Positions 15,354 through 62,923 of a stretch of 64,000 bases of DNA are shown here, in pieces (position 1 is the first letter of the stretch; the number at the start of each line of letters is the position of its first letter). This stretch comes from an uncultured Candidatus Saccharibacteria bacterium (GTDB lineage Bacteria > Patescibacteriota > Minisyncoccia > 2-02-FULL-40-12 > GWA2-44-9). The DNA is taken from positions 71,303 through 135,302 of the forward strand of contig CAZENF010000001.1 of NCBI GenBank assembly GCA_964513645.1. The letters run 5' to 3'. The notes below the pieces were generated by a model. That model did no database searches, was not told where the DNA came from, and saw only the letters and a program-made list of their open reading frames with translations. Position numbers and translations under genes: made by a program.

Positions 15354-15358
15354 AATGT

Positions 15359-15472
15359 TTAACCTTGTCTTTGTTTATGCTTGGGATTCTTGCAGATACA
15401 ATACAGACGGCCTTTCCGTCTGACTAATTTGCAATTATTGCACATTTTTTTTACAGAAGCCCGTACTTTCAT
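15359..15472 (-). CDS. rpmJ: 50S ribosomal protein L36
   Basis: Not in the ORF track because it is under 60 aa. Translated by eye on the minus strand: [37 protein letters not shown] (37 aa, C4 zinc ribbon), in the conserved position between infA and rpsM. Confidence 0.8.
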
Positions 15473-15596
15473 CCCGTACAAAGTAGCCCTTACAGGGCTT
15501 GAAGGTCAAATGTTTGACTTTCAAATCCATGCGAGAACTCACCACATCCCGTCCAAGTATTTGCTACTTTGTTCGGGATTCACACATATTTAAAAC

Positions 15597-15848
15597 CTAT
15601 AACCTTCGAATTATCCTTCCTCTTTTACCGTCAGGACTAAGTTCCAAGGACACCTTATCTCCCAGCATTACCTTTATATAATTAAGACGCATTTTGCCCG
15701 AAAGATAGCACAGGACACCCCGCCCATCTTCAAGCTGGACCTTAAAATTGGTATCCGGCAGTGCTTCAATAACGATTCCGTTTACTTTTTCTTTGGTCTG
15801 GTTCTGGTTCACTCTAAATTTTTGCAAAAATAAACCTACATCCTTCAA
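15597..15848 (-). CDS. infA: translation initiation factor IF-1
   Basis: [57 protein letters not shown] matches the IF-1 S1-like fold. The true start may lie downstream of the annotated one, giving about 72 aa. Confidence 0.85.
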
Positions 15849-15971
15849 GAAAGCGCGAGTGGCTGTTAAAGCCCTATAACCGCTTAAAAATTGCGGCCGC
15901 TTTCTTTAAAAATACTTATAAACCTTAGTTTATTTTCAACTTATGCATATTACCAAAATTGAGATTAAAAG

Positions 15972-18900: not shown

Positions 18901-19127
18901 GCAGAATTATATCCCTATCTCCGACCGGATGTCCAAAATCTCTGCGCATTTTGGCACCCTATCCCCTCGGCATTTCGAAGATCCGTTGTTAAGTCCGTGC
19001 TTATTTGTTACCGAAAATTATTCGTCAAAGCTCTAATTTTCGAACAAATGGGCACGACCGCCTTACGGCGCCTTATTGATGAGCCGAAATGCCTGCGGGA
19101 AATTCGGACTTAGAGATATAATTCTGC
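18901..19127. other. candidate structured RNA or MITE-like element bounded by 13-bp inverted repeats, strand unresolved
   Basis: gcagaattatatc at 18901-18913 pairs with gatataattctgc at 19115-19127. The 200-nt interior is GC-rich with several internal helices. It has weak, topologically inconsistent resemblance to RNase P CR-I and CR-V. Confidence 0.3.
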
Positions 19128-19182
19128 TATTTTGTTTAGCTATTTTAGTAAAAACATAGAATTTAACAGGAAAAAGCTAATC

Positions 19183-19211
19183 TTGTAATTACCCATAAAG
19201 CATGGTATAAT
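19183..19211 (+). promoter_or_regulatory. sigma70-like promoter (TTGTAA, 17-nt spacer, TATAAT)
   Basis: Read directly. The RBS AAGGATGGGG and the ATG at 19234 follow. Confidence 0.5.
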
Positions 19212-19233
19212 GATAGCAAAGGATGGGGCTGAA

Positions 19234-19452
19234 ATGGAAAAAATCTACAATTACCCCGTATTCGGAACACAGGGCGGAGGACTGGTTCGAGAAGTCAGCC
19301 AGAATCTGTATCGCTACGTCTTCATCGAGAAGCCCGATTGTCCAGGACTGGACGTCGGCGACTTCATGCCTGAGCAGTGGGACATAATTCCCGCCAATCA
19401 GTCAGCTCGCGACCAGCTATTCGATGAGCAATTTGGCCCAAACGCCAACTAA
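19234..19452 (+). CDS. hypothetical 72-aa protein with GC-rich codon usage
   Basis: Own promoter and RBS. MEKIYNYPVFGTQGGGLVREVSQNLYRYVFIEKPDCPGLDVGDF... Followed by a near-palindromic hairpin (agacagagac-ctcgag-gtctcgtgtct) and a U-rich tract at 19466-19510. Its GC content is well above the genome background. Confidence 0.4.
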   Translation: MEKIYNYPVFGTQGGGLVREVSQNLYRYVFIEKPDCPGLDVGDFMPEQWDIIPANQSARDQLFDEQFGPNAN

Positions 19453-19700
19453 CCTCGTGTAAGACAGAGACCTCGAGTCTCGTGTCTGGCACGGGGTTTT
19501 CTGTTTGATAAACAACCAATAATTAAGCGAGGGGGACTGGCCATCTGAGACACTGGAGACCCCGAAATTGGACGATGGTATAATGTAGGCCGATAGGCCA
19601 CCATCGGACAATTTCCGGGCGATTGTAGCTGAGGTCGGATAACTCACGGAGGAGTTATCCGACCGGAGGCGTGTCGGAAGATGGCTGGTCTCTTGAGCAA

Positions 19701-31560: not shown

Positions 31561-31584
31561 AGTTTTCGTTTAAATTATATAACA

Positions 31585-32135
31585 AAAAACGAAAAAGACC
31601 GAACTATTCGAGTTCGGTCCGGACTTCCTTCCTTGTTCTTTCTTTTTCCTTATGCCGACGATATTTGCCGCCTTTAAGGGTTTTGTGAGGTCCGCCGGTT
31701 TGCATAAGAACCGGGAGCCTGACTTTCAGGTAGAGAGGTTTGTCTTTTTTAACCATATCTCCTGGATTATAACAAATCCCACCAAAATTTTCACGAATTG
31801 AAAACTTTGGTGGGAGGCCAAGGAAGAATTCACTTGGCTTGGGTAGTTTTTCCTGGAACATTCCTACCTCTGGCCTGTTTCGGCTTGTCGCCGTCCCGCA
31901 GCTGGGGGTTGCGGAATTTTTCGTCGGACACAGCAGGCTCCGACTAGATGAAACGGCGCTATCCCTTTTTGGGAGCAGGTTTACCGCCGCAGGGTGTAGA
32001 GATCATACGCTTTTGGAAAGCGCACTGTTGGCGGTCAATTTCCGCCTTCTCACGCCCTGACCAAGTGTACCCCTTTTTTCGGAGCAACATGGTTGCTTCA
32101 TCGGCCAAGTCCTTATTAGACTTTGCCATAAACAC
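31585..32135 (-). promoter_or_regulatory. long structured 5' leader, a candidate riboswitch or attenuator, ending in a terminator hairpin 30 nt upstream of the P-type ATPase start
   Basis: Minus-strand promoter-like TTTACT-17-TAATAT at 32141-32169. A GC-rich multi-helix region at 31870-32110. A 15-bp hairpin at 31771-31811. A terminator, gaccgaact-attcg-agttcggtc plus a U-run, at 31598-31620. Weak M-box-like strings (GUCAGGCUCC, GGCAUAAGG). It contains an 85-codon ORF (31604-31861) with RBS GAGGT that may be a leader peptide. Confidence 0.4.
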
Positions 32136-32206
32136 ATCATCATATTAACACATTTTTAACATAAAGTAAAGAACCGGTAAAAACCCGGTACTTTTATATT
32201 AGTACA

Positions 32207-46608: not shown

Positions 46609-46682
46609 CCGACCGCCTTTCCGCCGTTGTTGTTAACGACAATCAATATTATAGACTTCATTAAAAATAAGTCAATTATAAA

Positions 46683-46706
46683 GGGGCAACCGATGTTGCC
46701 CCTTTT
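46683..46706. terminator. bidirectional terminator hairpin
   Basis: ggggcaac-cgat-gttgcccc flanked by T-runs. Confidence 0.5.
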
Positions 46707-46716
46707 CTCGGGATTT

Positions 46717-46869
46717 TTAGCCCCGGAAGTAGTTACCGAGCTTGCCCTTGTGCTTGTGGCGGGTGTTGTGGCGCCGCGCCGCCTGCCGTGCCGCATGGCC
46801 ATGGCCCTGCTTCGCACTGCCATGGCGGTGAAGCTCCCGCTTCAATCTGTTCTCTCTCTTCCTGGCCAT
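46717..46869 (-). CDS. hypothetical highly basic 50-aa protein, GC-rich
   Basis: MARKRENRLKRELHRHGSAKQGHGHAARQAARRHNTRHKHKGKLGNYFRG, with RBS GGAGG 7 nt upstream. GC3 is far above genome background. Confidence 0.4.
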   Translation of the reverse strand: MARKRENRLKRELHRHGSAKQGHGHAARQAARRHNTRHKHKGKLGNYFRG

Positions 46870-58345: not shown

Positions 58346-59620
58346 TCAATTGGGCAAGAGTTCGCGGACGATTTTTTTGTCCGACCAACGGACTTTTTTG
58401 TTCCCAGCTATGGCCATTGTGGTTTCCGAACCCTTACCGGTAATTATTACGGTGTCGCCTTCAGCCGCTTTACCCAAGGCATTCCTGATTGCCGCTTTCC
58501 GGTTGAGAATCCTGACGACATTAACATTATTATTCGCAAAACCCAAGGCAACTTGGTCCAGAATTTCATCAGGATCCTCATCATAAGGGTCTTCATCAGT
58601 CAGAACAATATCGTCGCAGTATTGAGAAGCAATGCGGCCGAACTCCGGCCTTTTCCACTTATCACGCCCGCCACCGGCCGCCCCCAGAACACATATCAAT
58701 CTTTTGTCCGCCAGTTTTAAGGTCTGATAAACCGCCCTCAAAGAATCGGGAGTATGGGCATAATCAATGACAACATTGAATGGTTCACGTTGGATAAATT
58801 CCATCCGGCCGGGAATAAATTCCATCTGTTCAAGTATTGATTTAGCTGACGGCAGGTCAAATCCGTACATCGCACCGACCGCCAAAGCCGCCAAAAAATT
58901 CATAATATTGAACTGCCCGGCCAAATGAGTGTTAAAATTGGTCCCGTAAATCTCAAAAGACGCTCCTTGCCCAGATAGTTTAATTTTACCGGCAACAATG
59001 TCACCTTTGGTAAGCCCGTAATATATTTTATGATTGGCCGGAAAATCACCGAACAATTCAGCGTATTTATCTTCCGCATTCACCACATGGATATTTTTGG
59101 TCACCTGGAAAAGCTCCTGCTTGGCTCTGTAATAATTCTCAAAAGAACCGTGGCTCTCGATATGTTCCCGGTGAAGATTGGTAAAAACCGCACAGTCGAA
59201 ATCTATGCCTAAGTGCCTTTTTTGTTTGATACCTTCAGAGGTAACTTCCAGAACAAAATATTCGCAGCCCTCCTTGACCGCCTCGGCCATTAATTTTTGG
59301 AGACGGAACCGGCCCGGCATTGTCATTTTTAAATTGTTCGGCCATTCTTTATCTTTTATTTTAAAGCCAAGCGAACCGCAGGCCGCAACCGGCCGGCCAT
59401 GTCCCTCGAGAAGTTTTGTTATCAGATAAACTACCGTTGATTTGCCCTTAGTACCAGTAACTCCGATGACCTTTAATTTTCTGGACGGAAAACCATAAAA
59501 TACCGCGCCTGAATAAGCTAACGCAGTGTGATAATAAGGTTGAAAAAAATTAAAAACTGACTTCGGTATCAGCTTCTTGACTTTAAATAGGAGTTTGTCT
59601 AAAATGCTTTCCTGTATCAT
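58346..59620 (-). CDS. murE: Mur ligase, MurE-like (UDP-MurNAc-L-Ala-D-Glu:diamino acid ligase)
   Basis: GVTGTKGKST P-loop and the MurE-typical VIDYAHTPDSL. It lacks the usual N-terminal domain. Confidence 0.7.
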   Translation of the reverse strand: MIQESILDKLLFKVKKLIPKSVFNFFQPYYHTALAYSGAVFYGFPSRKLKVIGVTGTKGKSTVVYLITKLLEGHGRPVAACGSLGFKIKDKEWPNNLKMTMPGRFRLQKLMAEAVKEGCEYFVLEVTSEGIKQKRHLGIDFDCAVFTNLHREHIESHGSFENYYRAKQELFQVTKNIHVVNAEDKYAELFGDFPANHKIYYGLTKGDIVAGKIKLSGQGASFEIYGTNFNTHLAGQFNIMNFLAALAVGAMYGFDLPSAKSILEQMEFIPGRMEFIQREPFNVVIDYAHTPDSLRAVYQTLKLADKRLICVLGAAGGGRDKWKRPEFGRIASQYCDDIVLTDEDPYDEDPDEILDQVALGFANNNVNVVRILNRKAAIRNALGKAAEGDTVIITGKGSETTMAIAGNKKVRWSDKKIVRELLPN

Positions 59621-59663
59621 GTTTTTCAGGAATATAGCATAAATTTAGACTTTTTCACAGATA

Positions 59664-59692
59664 TTGACAGATATATCTATTTATGATAAAAT
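59664..59692 (+). promoter_or_regulatory. sigma70-like promoter (TTGACA, 17-nt spacer, TAAAAT)
   Basis: Read directly. Transcription would start at about 59700 into a GC-rich non-coding region. Confidence 0.5.
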
Positions 59693-59699
59693 ACTAAGA

Positions 59700-60330
59700 C
59701 GGTAAAGTTCTTTATATGCAATAAGCGTTGTGGGTTCAGAAAGGGCCTACTAAGAAGCAATTAGCTCTTTACATACAGGCCCTTTCCGAGCCCCTAGCAC
59801 GCAAGTAAATTAAGGCGGCGGCGAAGCAGTAGATGCACGCGGCTGCCACCTCCGCTGGGGGCTCGCTCAGTGATGCGGCCAAGGGCCCTTCACCTCTATG
59901 TCGTATGGGATACGTGTTTATCCCCCAAGCTCGTCCGCCGCCCTAAATAGGCGGACAAAGGTAATTTCCCCCGGCAAATGTTCGGGGCCAAAAAGGAGCT
60001 TTTGCATGAGAGGTATAAGCCCCTTGATGGCAGGGAGCCATCGCGGATAGCTGGGATCCGAACACCCCAGACAAGGGAGGGCTCAAGCCCTCCCACCTTC
60101 ATCCATAGTCTCAAAAATTTTGAGGATATAGACGAGGGTTGAGAGATGTGTGCGCATAGACGTAAAGTCGGCGACCGAAAGTACGCCCGAGAACGCTTTG
60201 CCCCTTCTCTCCCCTCACCTTTCCTGATCCCGGCAAGTGACCGGGGTAGGATAATCAAATACATCGGTAAGGCACACAAGGAGCAACGATGCGCTCCTTC
60301 GGTGGAACGCCGGGTTGAACACCCGGCTTT
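59700..60330 (+). ncRNA. candidate large structured non-coding RNA of about 630 nt, GC-rich and flanked by promoter and terminator
   Basis: No credible ORF. Many perfect helices: aaagggcct/aggcccttt (9 bp), gtccgcc/ggcggac, gggagggc/gccctccc (8 bp), cccgg/ccggg. Also ggcggcgg at 59814 pairing with ccgccgcc at 59936. It ends in an intrinsic terminator ccgggt-tgaaca-acccgg plus T5 at 60311-60333. No downstream plus-strand gene. Confidence 0.45.
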
Positions 60331-60333
60331 TTA

Positions 60334-61248
60334 TTACAAAAATTTTCTTGCGACCAAGTAAGATAAATACCACACCCACGATATCGGCATATCAAATGAA
60401 CCGGGATATTCTTTTAAATCCCCTCCCCAGCCGAACTTGAACCGAGTTACGCCCGGCCATCGCTTAGCATCAACTCCCCAAAAATCATAATGTCTAATTC
60501 CATGCTTCCTCAGCCATTTAATTATTTCCCAATGCAGAGCATAGGGCGCCATCATTGCCCGATATTCATAATCTGAAGCACCGTGAAGATAATATCCGGT
60601 ATCTTGGTATATCAGTACTATCGCGCCGGCGACCGGCTTGCCGTCATGTTCGGCCAAAATAATATCGGTTTTTATTTCTCCCTTTTCTTTCAAAAAATTC
60701 AATAACTTTTCATAATAATTTTTTGAATGAGAGGAGAATTTATCACGCTCGGTGGTTTTCTGAAGTAATTTCCAAAATTCATCCACATTTCCACCTGATC
60801 TTGTTTTTATCCCGTGTTTTTCGGCAACTTTAATATTGTAACGTGTCTTTGAATGCATCTTGACCAATAATTCATCTTCCGAACGGTCGAGACCGAGAAC
60901 AACGGTCAGGTAGGGCTGGATCTGTTTTGACGAACGCTTAAAACCCCGCCGATAGATGAGCTCCGTCACCATATCAGACAAAGGTTCTATTTTTGCAAAT
61001 ATCGCACCTTCCTCGTAACTCAAATCTTTTAAATATTTCAAAAATATCCCAAGTTCATTCTTAACTCCGCCCTTAATATGTTCGAAATCTATTTCCGGGC
61101 CATGCGGAATATAAAGCATGCTTTTACCGAGCGGCAGTCCGAGCTTTATGATATTGGCCACAATCTTACCGTCGTCAAAGCGCCAGGTCTTGTGCCCGGC
61201 TTCTTTTTGAAAATCGAGCCATTCTTTTGTCTGTAAAAACGACTTCAT
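60334..61248 (-). CDS. FemAB-family peptidoglycan interpeptide-bridge aminoacyltransferase
   Basis: 304 aa. FemX-like GNAT-fold motifs (WRFDDGKIVANIIKLGLPLGKSMLYIPHGP). Confidence 0.7.
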   Translation of the reverse strand: MKSFLQTKEWLDFQKEAGHKTWRFDDGKIVANIIKLGLPLGKSMLYIPHGPEIDFEHIKGGVKNELGIFLKYLKDLSYEEGAIFAKIEPLSDMVTELIYRRGFKRSSKQIQPYLTVVLGLDRSEDELLVKMHSKTRYNIKVAEKHGIKTRSGGNVDEFWKLLQKTTERDKFSSHSKNYYEKLLNFLKEKGEIKTDIILAEHDGKPVAGAIVLIYQDTGYYLHGASDYEYRAMMAPYALHWEIIKWLRKHGIRHYDFWGVDAKRWPGVTRFKFGWGGDLKEYPGSFDMPISWVWYLSYLVARKFL

Positions 61249-62073: not shown

Positions 62074-62329
62074 AAAAATAAAATGTGAGATAGTTGGTTA
62101 TATTTATTTTAAAACCAGCGAAGCTCTTTTATTTCGTAGACCGTCTTTTTTCGAGCGGCTAAATGCTTAAATTAATTAAAAATTAAGTTATTCAACAAAT
62201 TTGAGGGGAGGTCTTCCGACGAGGCTCAAATTTGTTAGCTTAATTGAGATTAATTTAAACATTTAGCCATGAAGATAAAAAGTAGGTCGAAAAATGAAAG
62301 GGCAAAGCAATTAAAATAAATATCCCAAA

Positions 62330-62923
62330 CTATCTCTTCCCCAATATCTTTAACGCCTCCCTTACCCTTTCCTCCAAAGTTTTACCTTTTGATTCTTTCA
62401 AAGCCTCCTTGGCCTGATATTGAGTATAGCCAAGAGCCAGAAGTGCTTCGACGGCCTGACCCTCCTGACCCAAATCAACGCCTTTCATGTCGCCGATATC
62501 AAGAAAATCTATCTTATTCTTAAGCTCAAGCACCAAACGCTGGACGGTTTTGGGACCAAGTCCGGAAACTTTTTTTAAGTAATCTGCGTCTTCGTTCACG
62601 ACTGCAGCTTTTAAATGTTTGGGTTCAACGACTGACAGAATATTCATCGCACCTTTTGGACCAATGCCGGAGACCGAGGTCAACAAATGGAATAGGTCCA
62701 AATCCTCTGATTTATCGAATCCGTACATATCAAAAGTCCCTTCACGCATATTGAGTTGCGAATGAGTAAACAGCTTAACTTTGCCATTGACATCCTCCCT
62801 GGTTTTTGATAGAATATTCACTAACTTGGGAGAGACTATTACCCTGTACCCTATACCACCGGCACTCAAAACGACCTGTTTTTCACCCAAATGTTCAATT
62901 TTACCTTCGAGAAAACTGATCAT
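62330..62923 (-). CDS. ruvA: Holliday junction branch-migration protein RuvA
   Basis: N-terminal OB fold (MISFLEGKIEHLGEKQVVLSAGGIGYRV) and HhH pairs (GIGPKGA, GLGPKTVQRL). Confidence 0.85.
   Translation of the reverse strand: MISFLEGKIEHLGEKQVVLSAGGIGYRVIVSPKLVNILSKTREDVNGKVKLFTHSQLNMREGTFDMYGFDKSEDLDLFHLLTSVSGIGPKGAMNILSVVEPKHLKAAVVNEDADYLKKVSGLGPKTVQRLVLELKNKIDFLDIGDMKGVDLGQEGQAVEALLALGYTQYQAKEALKESKGKTLEERVREALKILGKR

Follow-up and report, generated by a model that had tools for sequence, protein, structure and literature searches.

A predicted stand-alone structured RNA gene between murE and femAB in a Yanofskybacteria-like bacterium, with modular relatives and no counterpart in Rfam 15

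The DNA analysed here is a stretch of 64,000 nucleotides (nt), hereafter the window, from an uncultured bacterium of the candidate phyla radiation (CPR), and the element in question is a GC-rich region between two cell-wall genes that is predicted to be transcribed as a large structured non-coding RNA. The gene for a MurE-like Mur ligase (murE; 58346–59620, minus strand), which carries the domains Mur_ligase_M and Mur_ligase_C, is divergent from the RNA promoter, and the gene for a FemAB-family peptidoglycan bridge transferase (femAB; 60334–61248, minus strand) is convergent with the RNA, its stop codon abutting the RNA terminator. A first-pass annotation had proposed a TTGACA-17-TAAAAT promoter and a textbook intrinsic terminator, and both were found. 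The promoter, of the sigma-70 type, lies at 59664–59692 on the plus strand (TTGACA, a 17-nt spacer with a terminal TG that extends the −10 element, TAAAAT; score 11/12), and the terminator occupies 60309–60333 of the same strand, with a 7-bp GC-rich stem (GCCGGGT/ACCCGGC at 60309–60327), a 5-nt loop and UUUUUAUU. The stem is followed by the tail TTTTTATT, and a terminator is predicted on the plus strand alone. With its start taken from the position of the −10 element and its end from the terminator, the predicted transcript spans ~635 nt (59699–60333, plus strand). Because femAB is convergent, no plus-strand gene lies downstream of the RNA, as had been noted; the sequence GGTGGAACGCCGGG, said to stand beside the terminator, was located at 60301–60314, where it overlaps the terminator stem.

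The GC content of the predicted transcript is 54%, compared with 42% for the whole window, close to the earlier estimates of 55% and 39%. Its minimum free energy is −258.7 kcal/mol against −215.9 ± 5.4 kcal/mol for dinucleotide shuffles (z = −8.0), and the predicted RNA contains many perfect or near-perfect helices, in agreement with the dense secondary structure that had been described. The opposite strand likewise folds well (z = −6.6); the helices contain recurrent U·G pairs, which would be A·C on that strand, and together with the layout of promoter and terminator these pairs give good support to the plus-strand assignment. A long-range pairing of GGCGGCGG with CCGCCGCC had also been put forward: the complementarity is present (59810–59821 with 59935–59946), but it lies outside the minimum free energy fold and was not found conserved in relatives.

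The claim that the region holds no credible open reading frame (ORF) was upheld. The longest ORF, of 127 amino acids, is on the minus strand, and neither it nor any other ORF inside the RNA region matched Pfam. Comparison of six-frame translations with the homologous loci described below revealed no conserved reading frame; translated matches to homologues were at most 45 amino acids long (best E = 1.6e-5) and fell in several frames simultaneously over nucleotide-conserved blocks. Proteins encoded beside the other loci showed no homology to the RNA regions, and on these comparisons the RNA region is judged not to be a pseudogene of the proteins found in the femAB–murE interval elsewhere. Promoter, terminator, fold and the lack of a conserved frame all support the earlier description of an orphan, independently transcribed, densely structured non-coding RNA, and the region is, as far as sequence can tell, a real, stand-alone, separately transcribed structured RNA gene.

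Relatives were collected by three routes. Retrieval of species-representative genomes by MurE showed the source of the window to be Yanofskybacteria-like, and nhmmer then identified the RNA upstream of murE in two loci, L001 and L002. A scan of 241 million metagenome contigs with the motif TAGCTGGGANCNNAACNCCCCAG gave 7 matches, of which only L085 is a true homologue; the RNA adjoins femAB there, in a match obtained independently of synteny. Contigs encoding FemAB homologues were then looked up, which gave L089, L091 (identical to L092), L097, L172 and L173. The RNA is thus known in nine copies, that of the window and those of eight homologous loci, and contig ends interrupt three of the nine. 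Every copy occupies the femAB–murE interval, antisense to both genes, and the hosts are Yanofskybacteria-like members of the CPR Paceibacteria. The window holds a single copy. The family may be wider than this set, since the motif TAGCTGGGANCNNAACNCCCCAG is too strict to match even the nearest relative, L173. A promoter of the form TTGAC[A/T]-17-TGnTAnnnT precedes 6/6 copies with an intact 5' end, and a same-strand intrinsic terminator ends 9/9.

The window copy can be divided into modules, all on the plus strand, that recur in the relatives. The 5' leader AAGUUCUUUAUAU (59705–59717) is predicted to be single-stranded and is conserved in the window copy, L002 (GGUUCUUUAUAU) and L089 (AAGUUCUUUGUAU). 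Module A (59732–59794) is a long hairpin, GGGUUC-A-GAAAGGGCCU ... AGGCCCUUUC-C-GAGCCCC, in which 95% of alignment cells are paired and 4 pairs have changed on both sides; sliding the partner lowers pairing to at most 60%, and the U·G pairs of this module are compatible with the plus strand only. The 3' strand of its base, GAGCCCCUAGC, can alternatively pair with the downstream GCUGGGGGCUC in a helix (59788–59865) that encloses a variable GC-rich insert. The downstream partner is kept in 5/5 copies that include the region; L001, L002 and L085 have a short loop before it, whereas the insert is long in L089 and in the window copy.

Module B, a GC-rich domain that together with A makes up the 5' part of the RNA, comprises several short hairpins. 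H1 (59968–59987; CCCCCGG-CAAAUGUU-CGGGG) is preceded by a conserved AAUUUCCC and is compensatory at 2/5 positions among the window copy, L002, L085 and L001. H3 (60026–60042; GAUGGC-AGGGA-GCCAUC) is compensatory at 4/6 positions, reading GCCGAC/GUCGGC in L002 and ACCGGC/GCCGGU in L085. The core of the module, GGAUAGCUGGGAUCCGAACACCCCAG (60045–60070), consists of a 5–6 bp stem, H4, beneath a conserved loop A-Y-C-N-N-A-A-C-R; the stem is compensatory at 5/5 positions, and its sequence is swapped with pairing retained in L089 (GCCAG/CUGGC) and L173 (CGGGU/ACCCG). H5 (60075–60094; GGGAGGGC-UCAA-GCCCUCCC), found in the window copy, L001, L002, L085 and L173, has one position changed from G-C to A-U.

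Module C (60096–60138) is a long hairpin with a sequence-conserved base, CCUUCAUC/GA(U/C)GAGGG, and a variable tip, which carries an insertion of ~70 nt in L002. It forms a near-perfect helix of 17–19 bp and is present in 8/8 copies that span the region, the contig end of L172 falling upstream of C. Across seven sequences it is 92% paired with 5 pairs changed on both sides, a covariation score reached by 0/500 shuffles. It is followed by a variable branched insert (60139–60216) with a closing helix GAGAG/CUCUC and a GAAA-tetraloop hairpin at 60170–60187; the closing helix is compensatory at 4/5 positions (UGGGU/ACCCA in L173, GGGGC/GCCCC in L002), and the insert has shrunk to a loop of 4–7 nt in L089, L091 and L097. 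Module D (60222–60251; UCCU-GAU-CCCGG-CAAGUGA-CCGGG-GU-AGGA) presents a conserved CAAGUGA loop on an inner stem that is compensatory at 4/5 positions in six sequences, within an outer helix of 3–4 bp. The module e hairpin (60280–60297; GGAGC-AACGAUGC-GCUCC, followed by UUCGGUGGAA) is compensatory at 4/6 positions; L173 has the same sequence, and L091 and L097 have GCUAGC/GCUAGC instead. In the relatives, module e leads into a 3' domain E of ~300 nt whose closing helix contains 7 covarying pairs; the window copy is without domain E. The helices of modules D and B were tallied by script from hand-listed strands because MAFFT put some sequences out of register there. Conserved nucleotides are concentrated in loops and junctions, and the compensatory base changes, for which the first-pass annotation had advised looking in relatives, suggest that the fold is maintained, a supportive result rather than proof.

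The copies differ in which of these modules they retain. The full form, of ~950 nt, is seen in L002 (A+B+C+D+e+E); L089 likewise has every module, although its B is reduced. L085 and L173 run from B to E and L172 retains E with part of D, the 5' ends of all three being cut by contig ends. The window copy runs from A to e and has its own terminator, peculiar to it, at the point where L173 and other relatives run on into E. L001 extends from A to C, with hairpin C and a run of seven U residues (U7) forming the terminator and nothing homologous after it, and L091 and L097 extend from C to E with their own promoter and a start just before C. From these comparisons the window copy is read as a natural 3'-truncated form of a modular RNA that reaches ~950 nt in relatives, a point that the first-pass annotation had not made.

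At the same interval in other genomes, the RNA can be missing altogether: in L006, L008, L013 and L090, femAB and murE are contiguous or overlapping, and the RNA is absent from between them. In a FemAB tree, a single clade contains every RNA-positive locus, intermingled with RNA-negative ones, and the outgroup has no RNA. This pattern is consistent with a single gain in an ancestor and several later losses and truncations, and would make the RNA dispensable. As a separate observation, the interval is a variable hot spot that, in L091, L093, L097, L171 and L001, can hold genes for cupredoxin-like, fn3-like, PF1765-like or 141-amino acid unknown proteins, the RNA, or nothing.

A covariance model (R1), built from the B core and C and run over 93 loci, found no additional members. 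A 26.7-bit match to R1 at window positions 46642–46747 was considered as a paralogue and rejected, as it is a terminator beside a small ORF. That ORF (46717–46869, minus strand) encodes a very basic 50-amino acid product, MARKRENRLKRELHRHGSAKQGHGHAARQAARRHNTRHKHKGKLGNYFRG, has a GGAGG ribosome-binding site, is located within an intergenic gap of 52% GC and has a terminator hairpin after it. A second side observation concerns L086 (positions 1153–1216), a metagenome contig of 58% GC (Ga0308176_10379264), where GAUAGCUGGGACCCGAACACCCCAGC is near-identical to the core hairpin of module B and reaches an R1 score of 27 bits. No other part of the RNA is recognisable in L086, and the likeness is due either to chance or to a distant relative in a higher-GC organism.

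The RNA was compared with the 4,227 families of Rfam 15, using the whole window at gathering thresholds, positions 59500–60500 at E ≤ 10 and six homologous loci at E ≤ 1–10. No match was obtained in the whole window at gathering thresholds, and on the RNA region at E ≤ 10 only chance matches of 13–24 bits to microRNA-type hairpins appeared; the six homologous loci and the full-length relative L002 likewise yielded no family beyond chance matches. ARAGORN detected no tRNA or transfer-messenger RNA (tmRNA) in the window or the eight homologous loci. The covariance-model and tmRNA-finder searches that had been recommended thus returned no confident match to a known family, RNase P included, in keeping with the earlier statement that this is not a standard housekeeping RNA. 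A literature search found no description of such an RNA. On these searches we regard the family as undescribed and absent from Rfam 15.

Several named candidates were also considered and set aside. OLE RNA has an adjacent oapA-type partner gene and a Firmicutes host; here the neighbours are MurE-like and FemAB-like, the host is Yanofskybacteria-like, and neither the window copy nor the six loci matched the OLE model. ROOL was rejected because its model matched neither the window copy nor the six homologous loci. GOLLD RNA frequently stands in a prophage or next to tRNA genes; it was rejected with no model match, no tRNA in the window or the eight loci and no viral matches. The suggestion that the RNA belongs to the OLE, ROOL or GOLLD class was therefore not borne out, and the likeness to them in this respect is one of size and complexity only. 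A tmRNA was dismissed on the negative ARAGORN result for the window and eight loci and the lack of an Rfam tmRNA match, and a group I or group II intron on the lack of an Rfam match, the RNA's own promoter and terminator and its intergenic location. Among short motifs, a hammerhead-like reading of GAUGAGGG ... GAAG was rejected on account of incorrect spacing and a lack of conservation of CUGA. A tRNA-like end was rejected for the UACCA of domain E, since L172 has UACGU at this point, L089 has no such end, and the window copy is without E; a tetraloop receptor in the CCUAAG stretch of domain E has no UAUGG partner in the sequence.

We lean, with somewhat better than even confidence, towards a stand-alone gene whose product is a large structured non-coding RNA from a family new to Rfam 15; this RNA would be lineage-specific and accessory and would probably act in trans as a scaffold. 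The RNA may work as a folded scaffold, bound by protein or self-assembling, in the manner of the large orphan RNAs of bacteria. A role in trans is suggested by the location of the invariant nucleotides, which belong to loops and junctions (the loops AYCNNAAC and CAAGUGA and the base of the CCUUCAUC/GAUGAGGG helix), and by the lack both of a downstream gene to regulate and of extended complementarity to the neighbouring genes. The 5' and 3' halves may be separable units joined at hairpin C, since natural one-half copies each keep a promoter and a terminator. The gene would be ancestral to one Yanofskybacteria-like clade and have been lost or trimmed repeatedly, as an accessory rather than an essential function.

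A number of points weigh against this interpretation. The trans-acting scaffold, although the most likely role, was reached by exclusion, and the covariation statistics are weak, since only nine copies are known and contig ends truncate three; related sequences can, moreover, beat shuffles without any structure. The window copy, being without domain E, could be a decaying remnant that merely kept its promoter. Two strands, GAGCCCC at 59788 and GAGGG at the base of C, have both upstream and downstream partners in every copy that carries them, which represents either a switch or a misassigned helix, and the fold could accordingly be a switch and not a static scaffold. Finally, presence and absence of the RNA were scored at the femAB–murE interval, and RNA-negative genomes may carry a copy elsewhere.

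Bacterial non-coding RNAs of more than ~400 nt with conserved complex folds are rare, and most of those with a known function are ribozymes or the cores of ribonucleoproteins; the orphan classes OLE, ROOL and GOLLD are open problems. Much of bacterial diversity belongs to the CPR bacteria, and to our knowledge almost nothing is known of their RNA biology besides oddities of rRNA and a diverged RNase P. A more far-reaching version of the preferred reading, which we consider improbable, is that the RNA represents a new class specific to a CPR lineage, made up of large modular RNAs of up to ~1 kb that are catalytic or self-assemble, with separable domains and conserved either-or pairings that form a conformational switch, perhaps functionally tied to the adjoining cell-wall genes that depend on aminoacyl-tRNA.

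Other explanations were weighed as well. The RNA might derive from a selfish or mobile element, for instance an intron-like element or retroelement without an ORF, and be its remnant or domesticated form; the element would have been inserted once between femAB and murE and be decaying lineage by lineage, an account that we regard as unlikely, if the least so among these alternatives. Direct adjacency of femAB and murE in related genomes makes the RNA look as if it had been inserted into an operon, its distribution is patchy, some copies are shortened at the 5' end and others at the 3' end, the interval is a variable one that holds cupredoxin, fn3 and small unknown genes as well, and a separate AT-rich hairpin element nearby is differently placed in two genomes. 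Set against this are the location of all nine copies in the same interval and orientation, with a single copy in the window, and the lack of convincing terminal repeats or target-site duplications flanking the element, of transposase, reverse transcriptase or integrase in the scan of neighbouring genes, of any Rfam match to group I or II introns, retrons or other families, and of any viral, phage or plasmid match in three scans of viral contigs and BLAST searches of phages and plasmids. The compensatory changes also argue for a selected fold, and every truncated copy has kept or gained a promoter and a terminator. The truncated forms can also be explained, though this is slightly more doubtful again, by two adjacent RNA genes or a processed precursor, with A+B separate from D (and E in relatives) and C serving as a terminator or an RNase III-type site. 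In L001, hairpin C with U7 is indeed the terminator with no homologous sequence beyond it, L091 and L097 have a promoter just upstream of C and no A+B, and C itself is a near-perfect 17–19 bp helix with a conserved base; yet in the window copy, L002 and L089 hairpin C is not followed by a run of U residues, nor is D preceded by a promoter-like site, the sole candidate (60139–60168) scoring 9/12. This proposal is a refinement of the stand-alone RNA gene preferred here, not a contradiction of it.

The neighbourhood of femAB raises the further question of regulation in cis, by a T-box-like or other riboswitch-controlled terminator whose read-through would produce antisense RNA against the convergent femAB. 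FemAB enzymes use aminoacyl-tRNA, so the sensing of tRNA would make biological sense; GGUGGAAC lies directly 5' of the terminator, the terminator adjoins the stop codon of femAB in the window copy, L089, L091, L097 and L173, and two conserved strands have alternative pairing partners. We nevertheless consider this account very improbable. No T-box match was found in the window at the gathering score or on 59500–60500 at E ≤ 10, no Stem I, specifier loop or K-turn was recognised, and no same-strand gene follows directly, femAB being convergent on the opposite strand. In the closest relative, L173, the motif reads GGCGGAAU and is separated from the terminator by ~290 nt of further structured RNA. 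The RNA terminator is 400–580 nt from femAB in L002, L085 and L172, with another gene or element between, femAB is not adjacent in L001, and an RNA of 450–950 nt is far above the size of any known leader. The T-box hint of the first-pass annotation was thus not sustained, as GGUGGAAC is the tail of the conserved module e hairpin and not a T-box element. Just as improbable is a highly diverged housekeeping RNA missed by standard models, most plausibly RNase P RNA. In 10/35 closed CPR genomes, RNase P RNA was detectable only after the score threshold was lowered, and its helices were extended or missing (PMC8172020); CPR forms can therefore escape the Rfam models, and a negative Rfam result alone is insufficient against this possibility. 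Short look-alikes of a superficial kind occur in the window copy (GGGGUUCAGAAAGG, GAAAGGUGG) and in relatives (GGUAAACCACCC, ACAGAAAUUCC). However, RNase P models were absent among the matches listed down to about 13–15 bits for the window copy and full-length L002; weaker matches fall outside that listing, and CPR forms can score low (PMC8172020). A P4 helix joining a GGAAAGUCC-type 5' strand to an ACAGAA-NCCGGCUUA-type 3' strand was not found, GAAAGG being the 5' strand of a local covarying hairpin, and the copies do not conserve the AAAGUCC-like stretch that follows hairpin C, for which we could find no complementary 3' partner. The core of RNase P joins both ends of the molecule, with which natural copies that are without the whole 5' half (L091, L097) or 3' half (L001, partly the window copy) are incompatible; the RNA is also missing from the same interval in many close relatives, and ARAGORN found no tmRNA.

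Some further features of the loci were recorded. The AT-rich element at window positions 62087–62336 is an intergenic sequence of ~250 nt (30% GC) that forms one very long imperfect hairpin with nested inverted repeats and a GC-rich tip; a homologous stretch in L085 (2460–2690) has another position relative to the genes, and the element may be of the type of a miniature inverted-repeat transposable element or else a separate non-coding RNA. Between the RNA terminator and femAB of L172 (2000–2340) there is a long GC-containing inverted repeat, AAUAAUUACUCAUUUUCUCUGACCGAUUGGGAU ... AUCCCAAUCGGGUCCCAGGAAAAUCUCAUAAUUAUU, which did not match the 62087–62336 element in an nhmmer comparison. Three other gaps in the window (15354–15971, 19114–19700 and 31561–32206), of ~590–650 nt and 39–48% GC, hold no ORF of 110 or more amino acids and had no Rfam match at gathering thresholds.

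If the RNA is a CPR-specific family of 0.5–1 kb, its natural single-domain variants offer a ready-made domain dissection for structural and biochemical work; were it only the relic of an insertion, it would still mark a variable hot spot within a conserved cell-wall operon. Compared with known systems, the RNA resembles a T-box leader in the GGUGGNAC-like stretch beside an intrinsic terminator and in having as its neighbour femAB, which encodes an aminoacyl-tRNA-using enzyme, but differs in that its relatives neither conserve the motif nor have it next to the terminator. With the diverged RNase P RNAs of CPR bacteria (PMC8172020) it shares the property of a structured CPR RNA missed by standard covariance models, as well as large helix extensions, missing helices and a few short look-alike motifs; it differs from RNase P RNA in having no long-range helix of the P4 type and in the variants that are missing either end. 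OLE, ROOL and GOLLD are reported to form RNA-only homo-oligomers (PMC12286853). Like these three, the RNA described here is a multi-domain molecule of 0.5–1 kb, GC-rich relative to its genome, encoded as a stand-alone promoter-to-terminator gene, with conserved nucleotides mostly in loops and junctions, a narrow and patchy phylogenetic distribution and no obvious target gene; GOLLD, too, has a variable and a conserved half. It has no sequence or structure match to their Rfam models, and its loci have neither an oapA-like partner gene nor a tRNA or prophage context. Whereas those classes come from Firmicutes, rumen or lake bacteria and phages, its host is a member of the CPR Paceibacteria, and, unlike them, its family includes natural copies from which a whole half is missing.

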